From the NCBI GenBank assembly GCA_048939625.1, contig JBHLPH010000027.1, positions 1 through 12,926 on the forward strand: DNA of 12,926 bases, written 5' to 3'. The notes below the pieces were generated by a model. It saw only the letters and a list, made by a program, of their open reading frames with translations, did no database searches and had not been told where the DNA came from. How positions within the stretch are numbered: position 1 is the first letter of the stretch; the number at the start of each line of letters is the position of its first letter. The stretch comes from Promethearchaeota archaeon (GTDB taxonomy: Archaea; Asgardarchaeota; Hermodarchaeia; Hermodarchaeales; Hermodarchaeaceae). Made by a program: the position numbers and the translations under genes. Shown here one piece after another: positions 1,257 to 12,790 of the stretch.

Positions 1257-1991
1257 ATGGTCGCTTCCTCAGACTCAGTTAACAAATACGGGATAAGTAG
1301 TATTATCCGTGAATTTGTCATTGTCCTTTTCATTGCAGTTCTACTCTGGATCTCCGCAGGATTCCAGTTATGGCTGAATGCCTGGGTATACATCATCTTC
1401 CTGCTCTTCTTTTCAACCATCTTCATGATTGCTATGGCTTGGAAGAATCCAGAGCTACTAAACATTCGGGGGGCACCTCGACGAGCCATACAACAAACGC
1501 AATTACCTCATTACGAAAAGTTCTTTCTTACTGTCTTTACGATTCTTCTCATCTTGATTCCTATTTTTGCTGGTCTCGATTATCGGGGGCTCTTCAATCT
1601 ATGGCTTCCACTTCCCATTCAGGTTCCTGTCTGGCTTGTGGGCATTGGATTCGGACTCGTAATCATGGGTGAGTTCCTATTTGGGTGGGCCATGATATCA
1701 AATCCCTTCTTTCATGGAATGATAGCGATTCAAACCGAACGAAGTCATCGCGTCATTTCAAAAGGGCCCTATCGGTTGGTACGACATCCCGGGTATCTCG
1801 GTCAAAGCCTCTATTATCTTGGGATGCCTCTGCTCCTAGCTTCTTGGTGGGCATTCTTCCTTGGAATTATCATGACCATCGCTTTCGTTTATCGGACAAC
1901 GAAAGAAGATCGGGCTCTATTAGCTGGGCTCCCAGGCTACGGTGTATATGCTGAGAAAACCAGCAAGCGCCTTTTTCCAGGACTTTGGTAA
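1257..1991 (+). CDS. Second ICMT/Ste14 family membrane methyltransferase
   Basis: Carries VISKGPYRLVRHPGY and RTTKEDRALLAGLPGYGVYAEKTSKRLFPGLW. It starts 13 bp after the first gene, so the two are probably co-transcribed. Confidence 0.92.
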   Translation: MVASSDSVNKYGISSIIREFVIVLFIAVLLWISAGFQLWLNAWVYIIFLLFFSTIFMIAMAWKNPELLNIRGAPRRAIQQTQLPHYEKFFLTVFTILLILIPIFAGLDYRGLFNLWLPLPIQVPVWLVGIGFGLVIMGEFLFGWAMISNPFFHGMIAIQTERSHRVISKGPYRLVRHPGYLGQSLYYLGMPLLLASWWAFFLGIIMTIAFVYRTTKEDRALLAGLPGYGVYAEKTSKRLFPGLW

Positions 1992-4373: not shown

Positions 4374-5039
4374 GTGAGTGCAACGGAATTCTTCGCGATT
4401 ATCGCGGCATATAACTCAGTTTACCTAATCGCTACAATTCTTACAATCATTCTTGGAATCGTTGCCGTCATCTTTGCGATTAGAAAAACGGCTTATTCAG
4501 ACCAACTCATCTCATTGACATTAGCATTTCTTTGGCTTTGGGTTGGAATTGTATTTGGCTTTATCACGTTTGGCGCTTGGACTCCTATTATATTGGGAGT
4601 ACCCATTCCTGGTTTCGGATATTTCTTTGGGCTAACCTTTACAATTCAAGGTCTTCTCTTCCTGTATTTCGGTGTATACCGGAAATCCCTGTCCTTTCAA
4701 TTTCAACAAAATCTCCACGGATTTCTCGGCTTGATTCTCATCATCTATGCCATCGTAATTTATGGGCTCATAGGATTCGTAACTGGTCATCCTTTCCCCT
4801 TCTATCCTCTCTTTGGCACCTCACCATGTCCGGTTTCCATCTTCACTATTGGTCTATTCTTGTGGGCTGACGAACGAATCTCCCCAGTAGTACTTATCAT
4901 TCCCCTCGTTCACGGACTCATCGCAATCGTTCCGATAATTGGCTTTGGCATCTATGCTGACATTCTGCTATTCCTCTCTGGACTCATCACAATCTTCATT
5001 CTCTATCGACACTGGAAATGGGAACAGACCACTGAATGA
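4374..5039 (+). CDS. DUF6064-like multi-pass membrane protein
   Basis: GTG start after a GGGGTG SD (4363-4368). About 7 TM segments with the motifs LAFLWLWVGIVF, FTIQGLLFL and PLFGTSPCPVSIFTIGL that I associate with DUF6064. Confidence 0.8.
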   Translation: MSATEFFAIIAAYNSVYLIATILTIILGIVAVIFAIRKTAYSDQLISLTLAFLWLWVGIVFGFITFGAWTPIILGVPIPGFGYFFGLTFTIQGLLFLYFGVYRKSLSFQFQQNLHGFLGLILIIYAIVIYGLIGFVTGHPFPFYPLFGTSPCPVSIFTIGLFLWADERISPVVLIIPLVHGLIAIVPIIGFGIYADILLFLSGLITIFILYRHWKWEQTTE

Positions 5040-5130
5040 TCTGTCGACTAATTTGCCTTTCATTACCGAATCCGTAAATCTTAAACTACGCAGTGAACGC
5101 GTTCCTCATCATCCTTCCCTGGTGGACAAC

Positions 5131-6657
5131 GTGTCAAAGAGGCCCCACATTCTATCGCTAGTCCTATTCTTAGCATTCCTTGTAGCCTTAGCACCGATAA
5201 GCTTCTTCCAAGGGACCGCTTCTACCACGACAATGAAAATACGCATTTCCTCTGAATACACTAACCGATCACCACTGCAACATAATCCCCCAGCACAAGA
5301 AAGCCGAACAGAATCACCTCTTCCATCCACGCTTCCACAATATCTGACCATGGACTATACACCTCACAGCGCAATGGTGATTTCCAGTGATGCTGATTTT
5401 CCATTGCTAGGTTGGAATGGTACTGGAACACCAGACGATCCGTATTCCATCTCAAACCTCCATATCATAAACAACCAAACCATTGGCATTCTCATACAAC
5501 ATACTCGTGCCCATTTTGTAGTGAATAACTGCCTGATTACCGGTGCTCAGGTTGGGATAAAACATCACGGCATCTATTTCCTAAATGTCTCCAATGGTGT
5601 GATTGCTGATTCAATCTTCCAATATACTTGGACAGCAATCCTGCTTAATCAATCTCATTCCAACCACATTCTCCGCAACTGGTGCACTGATGCAAGAAAT
5701 AGCCTCCAACTCCTCTCAGCAAACGATAATCATGTTCGCAATAATTCACTTGTGTACAACTCCTTAGGCTTAGATTTGGATGAAGGGAGTAACAATCAGT
5801 TCTGGTGGAATGTCTTTTCAGGTAATCGACTGAATGCCTTTGATAATGGGGGACCTAATATCTTCGAGTATAATTATTGGTCCACCTACTTATACGGTGA
5901 TGCCAATGATGATGGGATTGGGGATATCGAATTCCAACTTTCAGGAACAGCTCAGACTTTTGATAATCACCCCTTGATGTGGCTTCCAGAGGGGCATCCC
6001 GTAGTTTGGCACGACTCGCTAGAGACCTCCTATGTTGTTGAAGCTGGATGGTATTTCACGTTACTTTTCGAAGCTGCAAGTGCTCCTCCTGGCAATCTCC
6101 AATGGTTAGTCAACGATTCATATCACTTTGAAGTGACTGATGGGCTCCTCGAAAGCCGCATGGGTCTATATGGAGATCGTTATGTTTTGAACATCACTGC
6201 TGTCGATACCCTGGGTTATTCGGTCCACACGCTACTCTTTCTCACTGTCTGGGACACAAGAGCTCCTGAATGGATTGATCCGCCAGAATATCTCATGCTA
6301 TGGGCGTACGATGAACCAGTTTCGATTTACTTCAACGCAACTGACCCCTCCGGTATTGACACCTACTATCTGGAAGACACTGAGACCTTCTCTATTAACG
6401 AATCTGGCTATCTAACTAATCGCACATCACTTGTCCTTAATTCCGTTTACGACATCTGGGTCAATGTAAATGACACATGGGGTCACACCACAAGTCTTGG
6501 TGTAACTCTTATTGCTATCATACCCCTACCACCCCGGTTACCTGAAATCTATTATCAAATCACTTGGGTTGTCATTTTTCTGACAATTCTGCTGCTTGTT
6601 GGATTCACATGGCATTTTCTGAAGTGGAAACATTACCGAACTGATATCTACCATTAA
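5131..6657 (+). CDS. Cell-surface protein: signal peptide, NosD/CASH-type right-handed beta-helix, two cadherin/Ig-like repeats and a C-terminal TM anchor (508 aa)
   Basis: The likely start is GTG 5131 (GGTGG SD at 5121-5125), giving MSKRPHILSLVLFLAFLVALAP. Also present: GWNGTGTPDDPYSISNL, Asn-ladder repeats (GIYFLNVSNGVI, AILLNQSHSNHI), the Ca-type motif DANDDGIGD, DTRAPEW/NATDPSGI repeats, a TM helix ending KWKH, and about 12 N-x-S/T sequons. Confidence 0.85.
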   Translation: MSKRPHILSLVLFLAFLVALAPISFFQGTASTTTMKIRISSEYTNRSPLQHNPPAQESRTESPLPSTLPQYLTMDYTPHSAMVISSDADFPLLGWNGTGTPDDPYSISNLHIINNQTIGILIQHTRAHFVVNNCLITGAQVGIKHHGIYFLNVSNGVIADSIFQYTWTAILLNQSHSNHILRNWCTDARNSLQLLSANDNHVRNNSLVYNSLGLDLDEGSNNQFWWNVFSGNRLNAFDNGGPNIFEYNYWSTYLYGDANDDGIGDIEFQLSGTAQTFDNHPLMWLPEGHPVVWHDSLETSYVVEAGWYFTLLFEAASAPPGNLQWLVNDSYHFEVTDGLLESRMGLYGDRYVLNITAVDTLGYSVHTLLFLTVWDTRAPEWIDPPEYLMLWAYDEPVSIYFNATDPSGIDTYYLEDTETFSINESGYLTNRTSLVLNSVYDIWVNVNDTWGHTTSLGVTLIAIIPLPPRLPEIYYQITWVVIFLTILLLVGFTWHFLKWKHYRTDIYH

Positions 6658-10525: not shown

Positions 10526-11374
10526 CTAACGGATTTTATTTCCACATTTCGGACAAAAGTTACCTTGAAACATGAACAATGGGTACTCAGAATCACACTT
10601 GGAACAATGGACAATCAGTTCCTTTCCACATTGGGTGCAACGTTCACTTATTGGAACAGTCTTATGACAATGTGGACATTGAACTTGGGGAATGGCTGGC
10701 ATACCACCAGGCATCATAGCCGGACCAGTTACTGGTGGTGCTGGACTCGGCGAACTCGGTGCACCACTTGTTACTGGAGCAGCACAATGGGGGCAATGTG
10801 TATCTCCGGCAGGGATGGATGATCCGCAGAATGGACATTTATTCTTAACCTTCGCTGCTTCGATTTGGGCCTCAATCACTGCAAACATCTGAGGCTTCTT
10901 ACTTTCGAACTGTATGTCTTCTCCGCTAGTCAATGTAATGACGAGTTTGTTTTGGGGGCTATCGATATTATCAATGACCATCAGAGGAACAGCAAGGGAC
11001 TCTGCAACACCGCCTTTTCCACGAGCGACCATTTGATTAGTTGAAATTGTATCGAGGACAATAGCAGTTGCTGTAGCATGGGTTGCATGACTAATACCTC
11101 GTCCAATCGCCCGACCTGCAAAGCCACCATGACGGCGAGCCGCACCCGCAGCAACGGATCCAGCAACCCCCACTGCGAAGGCTTTGGCGAATCCACCTAG
11201 GAGTCCGCCTCCCTTTTGTTTCTCAAGTTTATACCAGACGATGCGAATATCCGAGACGGCAAGATTTCCCGAATTTCCTTCGAATTTAACGTCATCAATG
11301 GTTGTTTCGATTTTTTCATATCCCAGGGGGACCAATTGACCGTTCTGGACTGACACGTTGAGAAATTCTGTCAT
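10526..11374 (-). CDS. PH-like (GRAM/GLUE-like) domain with Gly-rich insertion, Pro-rich linker and three zinc ribbons
   Basis: Six CxxC motifs (CPFC/CPHC, CPHC/CTQC, CSKC/CPKC). GNLAVSDIRIVW...SLAVPLMVIDNI...KLVITL...IQF plus a terminal helix follows the PH-fold pattern. A TTATA about 25 nt upstream of the ATG (11403-11399) suggests its own promoter. Confidence 0.8.
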   Translation of the reverse strand: MTEFLNVSVQNGQLVPLGYEKIETTIDDVKFEGNSGNLAVSDIRIVWYKLEKQKGGGLLGGFAKAFAVGVAGSVAAGAARRHGGFAGRAIGRGISHATHATATAIVLDTISTNQMVARGKGGVAESLAVPLMVIDNIDSPQNKLVITLTSGEDIQFESKKPQMFAVIEAQIEAAKVKNKCPFCGSSIPAGDTHCPHCAAPVTSGAPSSPSPAPPVTGPAMMPGGMPAIPQVQCPHCHKTVPISERCTQCGKELIVHCSKCDSEYPLFMFQGNFCPKCGNKIR

Positions 11375-11467: not shown

Positions 11468-12790
11468 TCATTCACTTTCAATTACTTGGTTTTTTTCAGA
11501 ACTGCTTTGCTTCTTTATATATTCGAGATCATCCTTTTCGAGATGTTTTTCAACACGGGGTAGATCAGTAAGTACCCACGCAAGAATCAATACTGTGACT
11601 AGTATCGAGCCAAACACTATGAATATCAAAGGAATTGAAAACAGCTCCGCGAAAATGCCTGCAACCAGAAACGCGAAGGGTGCAGTGAATTGGGCAATTG
11701 TCGTACGCACTGAAAAGACGCGACCTAATTTCTCTGGGGGCACCATCTTTTGCCAAATTGTCTGACTAGACACATTCGCAATTGGCAGGGTGAAACCAAT
11801 GAGGACAACGCCAAACGCCGCAACCCAAAAAATGCCAGGTGGGGTCAATGCAATAATAATCATCCCAAAAGCACCACAGAAGATGCCTAAAAAGACTCCA
11901 ATGATATTTCGCTTGAATCCTCCCCAAACCATCATGACGGCTGAGGCTACCATCATACTGCCGCTCTGCAGAGACAATAGAGTGGCTAGATAAATTACTG
12001 CAAGATTAAGATCGCCCAATGCGAGAATGTTTGTACTAAAGAGGGGAAGTAGGATGAAAATAGGGGGTAGTAAAAAGTTCGTTATGGCGAAGAGGGTTAG
12101 GAGGGTCAGGAGTCCGGAACGAGTGCGGATGAAAGATAAGCCTTCAGAAAACTCTCGTCTAAAAGAGGGTTTCTCCGTAACAATCTTCATCATGCGTACC
12201 GATGGAATTGTGACAAGGATGGCAGGGATAATGGCAATTAGATAAGTGCCAATATCAATGAAGAGGATACGAGCCATATCTCCGAGGAAGACGAGGAATA
12301 CAAGGGCTCCAATTGCGGGACCAATCGTCTGGATGAAGGCTGTGGCAAATAGGTTTAGGCTGTTCATGCGGGTTAGGTGCTTTCGGGCAACCATGATGGG
12401 GATTATTGCTTGAACAGCCATTGCATGGAAGGCTCCCACCATTCCTCCAATTAGCTGTAGAATGAGTACATGGATTATATTTGCTATTCCGATAAAGAAG
12501 AGTATCACTAAAACAAAACTCAGTAAGGCTAGTAGGCTATCGGCGATGATAATGACTTTCTTCCGAGACCATCGGTCGACGAGAACTCCTGCAATTGGTG
12601 TGATCAGGATGAAGCTGCCAAACCCGAAAAAGGCGGATATTCCCAGAAAGAATGCACTTCCTGTTTGGATTGTAATCCACCAGGTGAGGCTGAAGTTAAC
12701 GATGTTCGTACCTGCTAGTGAGGCTAGTTGACCTCCCCAGAAAATCAGATAGCTACGAAAGGTTTTGCGATCTGGCTCTGGTTGTTCCAT
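11468..12790 (-). CDS. MFS exporter, DHA3/MefA-like
   Basis: FWGGQLASLAGT, WWITIQTGSA, motif A GVLVDRWSRKKVIIIAD, QKMVPPEKLGRVFS, about 12 TM segments, and SD GAAGGAG at 12803-12797. Confidence 0.92.
   Translation of the reverse strand: MEQPEPDRKTFRSYLIFWGGQLASLAGTNIVNFSLTWWITIQTGSAFFLGISAFFGFGSFILITPIAGVLVDRWSRKKVIIIADSLLALLSFVLVILFFIGIANIIHVLILQLIGGMVGAFHAMAVQAIIPIMVARKHLTRMNSLNLFATAFIQTIGPAIGALVFLVFLGDMARILFIDIGTYLIAIIPAILVTIPSVRMMKIVTEKPSFRREFSEGLSFIRTRSGLLTLLTLFAITNFLLPPIFILLPLFSTNILALGDLNLAVIYLATLLSLQSGSMMVASAVMMVWGGFKRNIIGVFLGIFCGAFGMIIIALTPPGIFWVAAFGVVLIGFTLPIANVSSQTIWQKMVPPEKLGRVFSVRTTIAQFTAPFAFLVAGIFAELFSIPLIFIVFGSILVTVLILAWVLTDLPRVEKHLEKDDLEYIKKQSSSEKNQVIESE

Follow-up and report, generated by a model that had tools for sequence, protein, structure and literature searches.

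At positions 10526-11374 on the minus strand, the 12,926-nucleotide stretch of DNA analyzed here (the window) carries an open reading frame with an ATG start that encodes a protein of 282 amino acids plus stop (P0001). The protein is a single-copy, Asgard-specific one, and it combines a PH domain akin to those of BBS5, GRAM, GLUE, and p62 with an insert in one of its loops and with zinc ribbons. An earlier note on this DNA had taken the protein to be archaeal, and the source is indeed an Asgard archaeon.

A split PH domain and its relatives

We predicted the structure of the N-terminal region with AlphaFold2 from an alignment of 43 homologous sequences; this alignment was needed, as a full-length run with 18 close homologs gave a pLDDT of 40.6 and was unusable. 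In the resulting model residues 1-53 and 107-178 fold as one PH domain at a pLDDT of about 90 (77-94 and 84-93 for the two segments, respectively), and residues 54-106 between them stay below 50. The N-half (residues 7-53; positions 11216-11356, minus strand) comprises a short N-terminal hairpin and strands beta1-3 and bears the invariant signature residues G36, D42, R44, and W47. The C-half (residues 107-178; positions 10841-11056, minus strand) comprises beta4-7 and a C-terminal helix (161-177), and as modeled the two halves complete the seven-stranded beta sandwich with a C-terminal helix cap that characterizes the PH fold. A homodimer prediction for residues 1-178 with the 43-sequence alignment scored 0.00 in both of two runs without controls and speaks neither for nor against a dimer.

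Structural searches with the model returned BBS5 as the best VIA-align match (Z 13.3, rmsd 2.1, 104 residues, 21% identity), with scores of Z 12.2 for the PH-GRAM domain of MTMR2, Z 11.6 for the GLUE domain of Vps36, and Z 11.5 for TFIIH p62. Foldseek likewise placed BBS5 (E 2e-4) and Vps36 (E 2.4e-4) ahead of Lam6, MTMR2, and EAP45, and the matches of both programs span to residue 178. VIA-align scored 101 chains at a Z of at least 8; all of the best 50 contain a PH-like domain and all are eukaryotic, with no bacterial PH chain among them. The earlier note had read the two segments as halves of a single PH fold, and both the model and these matches bear this out.

The relationship to BBS5 was also found at the level of sequence. 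A profile of the family, built from the 43-sequence alignment, matched BBS5 at E 1.2e-6 in three collinear stretches, with BBS5 residues 147-192 pairing with the N-half, residues 199-220 pairing with beta4-6, and residues 193-198 standing at the site of the insert; a 6-residue beta3-beta4 loop in BBS5 corresponds to residues 54-106 in the family. Common to both are a Q-N-x-Q-L-x-x-L-P-x-E lead-in, a G-x-l-x-v-T/S-x-v-R-i-v-W strand pair, and an i-P-l/y strand. The earlier note had compared the NG/GQ-x-P lead-in and the G.l.vsD.RivW motif to Vps36 and WBP2; the motif is statistically backed, but its closest counterpart is the second PH-like domain of BBS5 and not Vps36 or WBP2. Both BBS5 repeats align with the same region of the query, and where BBS5 requires two tandem DM16 repeats the family protein has one PH domain only. 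Furthermore, BBS5 has its two tandem PH-like domains without zinc ribbons and works within the eight-subunit BBSome (PDB 6vbu chain 5 / 6xtb), whereas P0001 pairs three ribbons with one domain that carries a hydrophobic insert of 53 residues. The profile match indicates homology of the domain and not membership of the BBS5 family.

Matches of individual family members to Pfam PH families, every one below the curated cut-off, were distributed as BBL5 in 25/43, PH_TFIIH in 10/43, DUF6232 in 7/43, Vps36 in 4/43, and bPH_3 in 2/43. The BBL5 (PF07289) match recurs across all subfamilies, at 12.6-13.4 bits for P0001 and 18.2 bits for the best member against a gathering threshold of 23.8. Vps36_ESCRT-II (PF11605) reached at best E 0.015 among the 43 members (15.9 bits, cut-off 24.1), and a search of the genome with this model at E<=10 found nothing. 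At E<=10, GRAM (PF02893) matched none of the 43 members, although the GRAM-type PH structures of MTMR2 and Lam6 are among the top fold matches. The best bPH_3 match was sub-threshold (E 0.014), bPH_1 and bPH_2 gave no match, and sequence matches to p62 were weak (E 0.15-0.2). A phmmer search of 1.84 billion representatives found no relatives beyond the family itself, and none that were bacterial. Since sequence and predicted fold both place its nearest relatives in the BBS5/GRAM/GLUE/p62 group, the domain appears to be eukaryote-like, as the earlier note had supposed, and its best matches do not fall among bPH_1, bPH_2, or bPH_3.

Other split PH domains share parts of this layout. The GLUE domain of Vps36/EAP45 (PDB 2cay, 2hth, 2dx5; Z 11.6 and 9.9) is of the same PH subtype, and in yeast Vps36, as in the family, a split PH domain is associated with zinc fingers. 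However, the yeast domain is split at beta6-beta7 with its NZF fingers inside the split, whereas the family domain is split at beta3-beta4 by a hydrophobic segment, has its ribbons outside the domain, and lacks the NZF marks, the EAP30 winged-helix part, and the ESCRT linkage of Vps36. The PH domains of PLC-gamma1 and alpha-syntrophin are split at the same beta3-beta4 site, but they are of another PH subtype and their inserts are folded signaling domains (SH2/SH3 and PDZ, respectively) in place of a Gly/Ala-rich hydrophobic one; structure 2fjl stood at Foldseek rank 24. Compared via its Pfam model, DUF6232 pairs positions 17-116 of 117 with residues 40-174 of P0001, that is, with beta3, the insert region, and the C-half (E 0.015, 16.1 bits against a cut-off of 27.4). 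The DUF6232 model is without zinc ribbons, and the match hints at a similar order of strand, hydrophobic stretch, strands, and helix.

The beta3-beta4 insert and the zinc ribbons

The beta3-beta4 insert (residues 54-106; positions 11057-11215, minus strand) had been treated in the earlier note as a mere gap between the halves, yet it is conserved as strongly as the fold, with a column identity of 0.85 compared to 0.81 and 0.82 for the fold halves and 0.57 for the linker. Across the family the insert is 55-70 residues long. It is predicted to form a Gly/Ala-rich hydrophobic helix of small-xxx-small character (about residues 57-77) and, next to it, an amphipathic segment of basic character (about residues 78-95), with a hydrophobic moment (muH) of up to 0.59. 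Gly and Ala make up about 40% of residues 50-123, the insert has 5-12 small-xxx-small zippers, and residues 54-110 carry a net charge of +5 and 3 His, against net charges of -3 and -1 for the halves of the PH core. The Kyte-Doolittle maximum is 1.3-1.9, and the first insert helix reaches the 1.6 threshold in several lineages; Hessa-scale sums for the insert helices range from +2.8 to +6.6 kcal/mol, and because these simple sums are positive, neither helix is a confident transmembrane segment. Members of the Atabey type have two hydrophobic segments with a basic turn between them. Against Pfam the insert matched no known (membrane) family and gave only sub-threshold, compositional matches (TraT, C19orf12, LptF/G). 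Its conservation on a par with the fold, its Gly and Ala content, and its positive charge together suggest a hairpin that would dip into the membrane, and the insert is probably the key functional element of the protein.

Zinc ribbon 1 (residues 180-197; positions 10784-10837, minus strand) stands directly after the PH helix with the pattern C180-x2-C183-x10-C194-x2-C197 and is covered by a Zn_Ribbon_1 match at residues 179-201 (E 4.7e-7). It is followed by a Pro/Ser-rich linker (residues 198-229; positions 10688-10783, minus strand), the least conserved of all parts and variable in length among lineages. Beyond the linker lie ribbon 2 (residues 233-249; positions 10628-10678, minus strand), C233-x2-C236-x9-C246-x2-C249, and ribbon 3 (residues 257-277; positions 10544-10606, minus strand), C257-x2-C260-x13-C274-x2-C277, which brings the CxxC knuckles to six in all; DZR (PF12773) matched well above its cut-off (43.7 against 27.3 bits, E 3.1e-11). 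The Cys spacing and the DZR match agree with the three ribbons and Pro-rich linker described in the earlier note, which had also remarked correctly on the absence of the W and TF motifs of NZF fingers. Only the C-x2-C-x10-C-x2-C spacing is shared with the NZF pattern W-x-C-x2-C-x3-N-x6-C-x2-C and its T-F/phi marks: residues 178-179 are N-K and not W-x, G-S-S takes the place of T-F after the first knuckle, and zf-RanBP/NZF (PF00641) gave no match at E<=10. The number of ribbons varies from 1 to 3 by lineage. Ribbon 1 was found in every lineage checked except Atabeyarchaeia, where the one ribbon that remains is on the tether. Depending on the lineage, the tether bears two further ribbons (as here), one, or none, and the distal ribbons are truncated, lost, or decaying in some close relatives.

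Distribution, gene neighborhood, and the ESCRT question

We searched 400 Asgard genomes and found the family in 104, with exactly one match in each; it was found in Asgard archaea only. It is near-universal in five families, and so in Hermod-, Frey/Jord-, and Atabeyarchaeia and one further large family (f31), and it was found in 0/135 genomes of a 135-species family inferred to be Lokiarchaeia. By family, the pattern is presence in f1, f3, f14, f30, and f31 and absence from f20 and f7. A 20-bit match in one Asgard genome lay within the reading frame of a surface protein and was discarded as spurious.

The neighborhoods examined hold no neighbor conserved across classes that would point to a partner. 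A 748-aa surface glycoprotein, directly downstream of the gene in the two other close-relative neighborhoods examined, was rejected as an operon partner; it was not found adjoining the gene in the neighborhoods examined from other lineages. Both here and in family f31 the gene immediately upstream, in the same orientation, encodes an MFS transporter, and we regard this adjacency as unproven: the two MFS proteins have no detectable BLASTP similarity, the orthologs of the f31 type lie on other contigs in the present genome, and a sister genus (g2) has a DNA methylase in place of the transporter. In family f31 the gene is two genes from topoisomerase VI, a synteny seen within that one family only. 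A search for longer, fused forms of the protein, which stands alone as the earlier note had proposed, found none, which is weak evidence.

The tie to ESCRT-II and Vps36 proposed in the earlier note was not supported, given that BBS5 is the best match, the NZF marks are absent, and linkage to ESCRT genes was not found. In five genomes that carry both on one long contig, no EAP30 or Snf7 match comes closer to the gene than 131 kb. In the present genome the EAP30 gene is on another contig, neither fused to the family gene nor in an operon with it; it lies within a ubiquitin/ESCRT-I/II cluster and encodes a protein of 244 aa whose only Pfam domain, EAP30, spans nearly its whole length.

The same genome encodes, beside Snf7, a separate protein of the ESCRT-linked Asgard family Znr_CC_PH_SB (asCOG cog.011556; Makarova et al., 2024, PMC10936438). 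Both families are Asgard-specific and have a GRAM-like PH domain and three zinc ribbons. However, Znr_CC_PH_SB proteins (500-740 aa) bear their ribbons at the N-terminus, contain a coiled coil as well as a steadiness box, and are encoded beside ESCRT-III/II genes, whereas the present family has C-terminal ribbons, the loop insert, a narrower range, and neither coiled coil, steadiness box, nor ESCRT linkage; P0001 gave no match to Vps23_core and none to a coiled coil and is not a Znr_CC_PH_SB member. Znr_CC_PH_SB was found in 141/201 genomes, including 37/41 searched in the family inferred to be Lokiarchaeia. Its PH domain, which matches bPH_3 at E 2.7e-4, aligned with that of the present family over 92 columns in hhalign (score 33.4, P 1.2e-4), the insert standing unpaired at the corresponding loop, and reversed, shuffled, and off-domain controls scored 17.8 or less. 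The alignment points to a remote relationship between the two PH domains. A ribbon-to-ribbon hhalign match (P 7.5e-5, 35 columns) was driven by the Cys knuckles and was set aside as a sign of specific relatedness.

A putative membrane adaptor and competing explanations

The explanation that we favor, with modest confidence, is that the protein is a single-copy Asgard adaptor in which a PH domain with a membrane-dipping insert is joined to ribbons that would capture a partner; both membrane insertion and the adaptor role are putative. The insert would leave and re-enter the PH fold at one point. By textbook PH topology, this point should be on the side of the fold whose loops usually contact membranes. 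From there the insert, as a wedge or helical hairpin, would dip into the cytoplasmic leaflet and keep the PH core at the membrane, and the ribbons would then capture a partner.

An unlikely alternative is a soluble protein or nucleic-acid scaffold in the manner of p62 or FACT, with PH domain and ribbons, and with the insert as an oligomerization or low-complexity loop and not an anchor. The PH_TFIIH matches (10/43), the Z scores of 9-11.5 for the PH domains of p62/Tfb1, SSRP1, Pob3, and Rtt106, the frequency of zinc ribbons in archaeal nucleic-acid machinery, the resemblance of the distal ribbon pair to the ribbons of PolD DP2 (E 0.0025), the marginal hydrophobicity of the insert, and topoisomerase VI two genes away in f31 are all compatible with such a scaffold. 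However, an insert that combines a hydrophobic helix with a cationic amphipathic one, and whose ends adjoin, fits a membrane surface better, the p62 sequence matches are weak, and the proximity to topoisomerase VI is synteny in one family. The repeated small-xxx-small motifs of the insert, a feature that as glycine zippers occurs in channel-forming helices, would also suit an oligomeric membrane pore or lesion, toxin- or holin-like, with PH domain and ribbons as regulators. We regard this as very improbable: the gene is single-copy, near-universal, and apparently vertically kept in whole classes, the neighborhoods examined contain no antitoxin-like or mobile-element context, and the insert is not hydrophobic enough to make a stable transmembrane helix.

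We consider two further explanations improbable. One is that the protein is a member of some prokaryotic PH family of wide occurrence, bPH_3- or DUF6232-like, and that its likeness to eukaryotic GRAM, GLUE, and BBS5 domains is generic to PH folds. DUF6232 matches 7/43 members (best E 3.3e-4), with the P0001 match spanning the insert, bPH_3 matches two members, and bPH_3 is also matched by the PH domain of Znr_CC_PH_SB; moreover, the PDB may hold few structures of bPH_3 or DUF6232, and the fold ranking is therefore no bar to these families. Nevertheless, the BBS5 sequence match is much stronger and occurs in all subfamilies, the best 50 structural matches are all eukaryotic, and phmmer found no bacterial relatives. 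The other is that the protein acts in trans as an ESCRT-II GLUE equivalent, binding membrane, ubiquitin, and Vps28 on behalf of the GLUE-less Asgard EAP30 (Vps22/36-like) protein. The GLUE domain of Vps36 is among the top fold matches, the EAP30 protein of this genome consists of an EAP30 domain only and is encoded in a ubiquitin/ESCRT-I/II cluster, triple zinc ribbons recur in Asgard ESCRT components (PMC10936438), and the ESCRT-linked Znr_CC_PH_SB has a PH domain that is a remote relative of this one. Against this stand the physical distance from EAP30 and Snf7, the lack of any family match in the 135 genomes of the family inferred to be Lokiarchaeia, where Znr_CC_PH_SB is common, the lack of a zf-RanBP/NZF match and of the W and TF marks, the lack of a Vps36_ESCRT-II match in the genome, and a dedicated protein with ribbons, PH domain, and steadiness box already beside Snf7.

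On a reading that we hold to be rather unlikely, no other prokaryotic family stands closer to the BBS5/GLUE/GRAM branch of PH domains than this one, and this subtype, known from eukaryotic membrane trafficking, therefore arose in Asgard archaea before eukaryotes. If true, the conserved glycine-zipper hairpin would be a membrane wedge independent of lipid headgroups, an archaeal counterpart of phosphoinositide binding. It would serve to tether the membrane or to shape it, with cargo being recruited by the ribbons.

In eukaryotes, much of membrane trafficking relies on PH domains of the GRAM/GLUE/BBS5 type; their Asgard record is scant beyond the single ESCRT-linked family that was described in 2024. 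A link between the present family and BBS5 was not found in the literature library searched, where two papers mention both Asgard and BBS5, each naming BBS5 once in passing and outside title and abstract. Our analysis cautions that a PH domain with zinc fingers is not ESCRT by default. Altogether these data suggest that diversification of this PH subtype in Asgard archaea gave rise to two or more architectures, and they provide an example, open to experiment, of a PH domain that perhaps reaches the membrane through an inserted hydrophobic hairpin and not through a phosphoinositide pocket.

A split PH domain and its relatives

An earlier note had read two halves of one PH fold in the 282-aa protein P0001, encoded on the minus strand at window positions 10526-11374 with an ATG start, and structure prediction bore this out. 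With 18 close sequences AF2 gave an unusable model (pLDDT 40.6); with alignment A3, which holds 43 diverse N-terminal domains of the family, pLDDT reached 77-94 for residues 1-53 and 84-93 for residues 107-178, and stayed below 50 for residues 54-106. Strands were predicted at residues 8-10, 13-15, 22-31, 34-41 and 44-49 before this insert, and at residues 124-130, 134-138, 143-148 and 153-158 after it, followed by a C-terminal helix at residues 161-177. On this model, the N-terminal part of P0001 is a PH sandwich split between β3 and β4.

Comparison against 48,161 representative chains with VIA-align placed BBS5 first (Z 13.3, rmsd 2.1, 104 residues, 21% identity), followed by the PH-GRAM domain of MTMR2 (Z 12.2), pICln (11.8), the Vps36 GLUE domain (11.6) and TFIIH p62 (11.5). 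Foldseek likewise ranked BBS5 (E 2e-4) and Vps36 (E 2.4e-4) ahead of Lam6, MTMR2 and the EAP45 GLUE domain, and in the VIA-align ranking each of the best 50 chains was eukaryotic. Independently of the model, the A3 sequence profile matched bovine BBS5 (E 1.2e-6) and human BBS5 (E 7.9e-5), with TFIIH p62 behind (E 0.15-0.2). The BBS5 match comprised three collinear stretches, among them query residues 11-52 with BBS5 147-192 and 129-150 with BBS5 199-220; six BBS5 residues therefore occupy the place of the insert and its flanks. Pfam scans of single members matched BBL5 (25/43), PH_TFIIH (10/43), DUF6232 (7/43), Vps36_ESCRT-II (4/43) and bPH_3 (2/43), all below the curated cut-offs. We looked both for the lack of a PH fold and for best matches among the bPH families, and found neither. 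Thus, the eukaryote-like affinity proposed for this domain holds, and the protein represents a family new to the PH clan; the BBS5/GRAM/GLUE/p62 group contains its nearest detectable relatives.

The β3-β4 insert and the zinc ribbons

Residues 54-106 are not a mere spacer. Column identity among the close homologues was 0.85 in the insert, 0.81 and 0.82 in the PH halves and 0.57 in the Pro-rich linker. The diverse set gave 0.54 for the insert, and 0.56 and 0.49 for the PH halves. In the insert, which had no family match in Pfam, Gly and Ala make up about 40% of residues, and there are 5-12 small-xxx-small motifs that overlap one another. Over residues 54-110 the net charge is +5, three His being present, compared to -3 and -1 for the halves of the PH core. 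In the Hermod-type insert a hydrophobic low-moment helix (~57-77) precedes a basic amphipathic stretch (μH 0.5-0.6 at 75-95); in the Atabey type, two hydrophobic stretches flank a basic Pro-containing turn. Hydrophobicity is marginal (Kyte-Doolittle maximum 1.3-1.9; Hessa sums +2.8 to +6.6). In PH domains generally, the β3-β4 loop is found at the open end of the sandwich, the one that faces membranes. Because of this, and because both ends of the insert must join the fold at a single point, we infer as the simplest reading a re-entrant or interfacial hairpin that would anchor the PH domain to the cytoplasmic leaflet.

The three zinc ribbons and Pro-rich linker described earlier were recovered. 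Ribbon 1 (residues 180-197), which begins two residues past the PH helix, has the highest conservation of any part of the protein (column identity 0.86); the linker (198-229) connects it to ribbons 2 (233-249) and 3 (257-277). The ribbons match the generic Pfam models DZR and Zn_Ribbon_1; P0001 had no NZF/zf-RanBP match and, as the earlier note had stated, lacks the W and T-F marks. The number of ribbons follows lineage: three occur in the window's own Hermod-type genome family (f1), in f14 and in f30, two in f31 and one, the distal, in Atabey members. In some close relatives (P0016, P0017; L016:6001-6846, plus strand) the gene is cut short behind ribbon 1; beyond it the old frame, interrupted by stops, still shows a decayed double ribbon with several Cys codons lost. 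These decayed frames record recent loss of the distal ribbons, and the distal pair is therefore dispensable.

Phyletic range and gene neighbourhood

The family is small: word-indexed and exhaustive HMMER searches gave 18 homologues at 53-93% identity, the latter finding only 14 representatives among 1.84 billion proteins, and a profile search added Atabeyarchaeia-type members. Source names, wherever given, were all Asgard; the close set is labelled Hermodarchaeota, with one record each of Hod- and Odinarchaeota and several of generic Promethearchaeota, and other members are labelled Freyarchaeota/Jordarchaeia or Atabeyarchaeia. Existing database names ('zinc ribbon domain-containing protein', 'hypothetical protein', once 'predicted amidophosphoribosyltransferase') are uninformative, and our search of a literature library found this family described in no paper. 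By profile search, 104 of 400 Asgard species genomes had exactly one match each. The gene was found in 17/18 genomes of f1, 3/3 of f3 (Atabey), 6/6 of f14 (Frey/Jord), 1/1 of f30, and 75/89 in a tally that pools f31 (possibly Thorarchaeia, as a guess) with two further families, the listed matches all being from f31. It was found in 0/135 genomes of f20 and 0/31 of f7. The former is probably Lokiarchaeia, since its proteins of a separate ESCRT-linked family, Znr_CC_PH_SB, are 620-740 aa long, like the 650-aa Lokiarchaeum one.

The N-terminus M-T-E-F-L-N-V is identical in all close homologues, and GC content is ~43-46% throughout the window. Directly downstream on the same strand lies a 748-aa protein (P0051; 8097-10343, minus) with no Pfam match. 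It has a hydrophobic helix at its N-terminus (signal or anchor), a TM helix with a K-R-R-S tail at its C-terminus and 17 N-x-S/T sequons, and by these features resembles a type I surface glycoprotein. In the two further close-relative neighbourhoods inspected (L003/L004, L006), this place is taken by a protein of similar size (746-756 aa), likewise lacking a Pfam match; among the neighbourhoods inspected from other lineages, no such protein adjoined the family gene. An MFS transporter (11468-12790, minus) lies upstream, in the same orientation. Same-strand MFS genes are also immediately upstream at L035:4442-5890, L036:4317-5855 and most f31 loci; BLASTP detected no similarity between the window's MFS protein and the f31 one, and the sister genus g2 has no MFS transporter at this position. 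The recurrence may reflect a loose functional theme or chance.

Elsewhere in the window, two adjacent paralogous ICMT/PEMT-family (isoprenylcysteine carboxyl methyltransferase-like) membrane methyltransferases are encoded at 608-1243 and 1257-1991 (both plus). A DUF6064 membrane protein (4374-5039) lies just upstream of another probable surface protein (572 aa; 4939-6657, plus), which has a NosD/right-handed β-helix domain, a TM helix at its C-terminus and 13 N-glycosylation sequons.

Relation to ESCRT

The window's genome (87.6% complete) encodes ubiquitin/ESCRT machinery. One contig (L031:83-5601) carries a full ubiquitin/ESCRT-I/II cluster of EAP30, Vps28, UEV-Vps23, E2 and an E1-ubiquitin fusion; another (L032:3774-6485) carries two Snf7 genes and, beside them, a gene whose 500-aa product combines ribbons at its N-terminus with a GRAM-like PH domain (bPH_3 E 2.7e-4, GRAM E 0.018) and a steadiness box (Vps23_core). 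This protein matches Znr_CC_PH_SB (cog.011556), which Makarova et al. (2024; PMC10936438) describe as probably a component of Asgard ESCRT-I. Of 201 Asgard genomes searched, 141 had this family; where contigs are long, its gene adjoins ESCRT genes. Hermodarchaeia were reported to lack ESCRT components in a 78-genome set (PMC10936438), whereas the present genome, whose close relatives are labelled Hermodarchaeota, carries ESCRT genes.

The P0001 gene lies on a contig apart from both. In five genomes whose family gene shares one long contig with ESCRT genes, no EAP30 or Snf7 match lay closer to it than 131 kb; the neighbours of the family gene varied from class to class in the neighbourhoods examined. 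The eukaryote-like fold reading was right, but the relation to ESCRT put forward with it is unsupported. The best-supported mechanism would make P0001 a membrane-anchored adaptor; taken whole, we give this statement slightly better than even chances, and we regard its fold and architecture part as very likely correct.

Profile-profile comparison nevertheless links the PH domains of the two families: hhalign aligned 92 columns that cover both halves, looping out the insert, with a score of 33.4 (P 1.2e-4), compared to 11.4 for a reversed alignment, at most 17.8 for twenty column shuffles and at most 16.1 for other protein parts. The β3-β4 loop of the Znr_CC_PH_SB protein (L032:4983-6485, minus; residues ~300-316) opens K-G-F-F-N-K and resembles the start of the P0001 insert, G-G-L-L-G-G-F-A-K, which may hint that the P0001-type insert grew out of such a loop. 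Znr_CC_PH_SB is wired into ESCRT, whereas the P0001 family has the loop insert and stands alone. At least two diverged 'PH plus zinc ribbon' families therefore exist in Asgard archaea.
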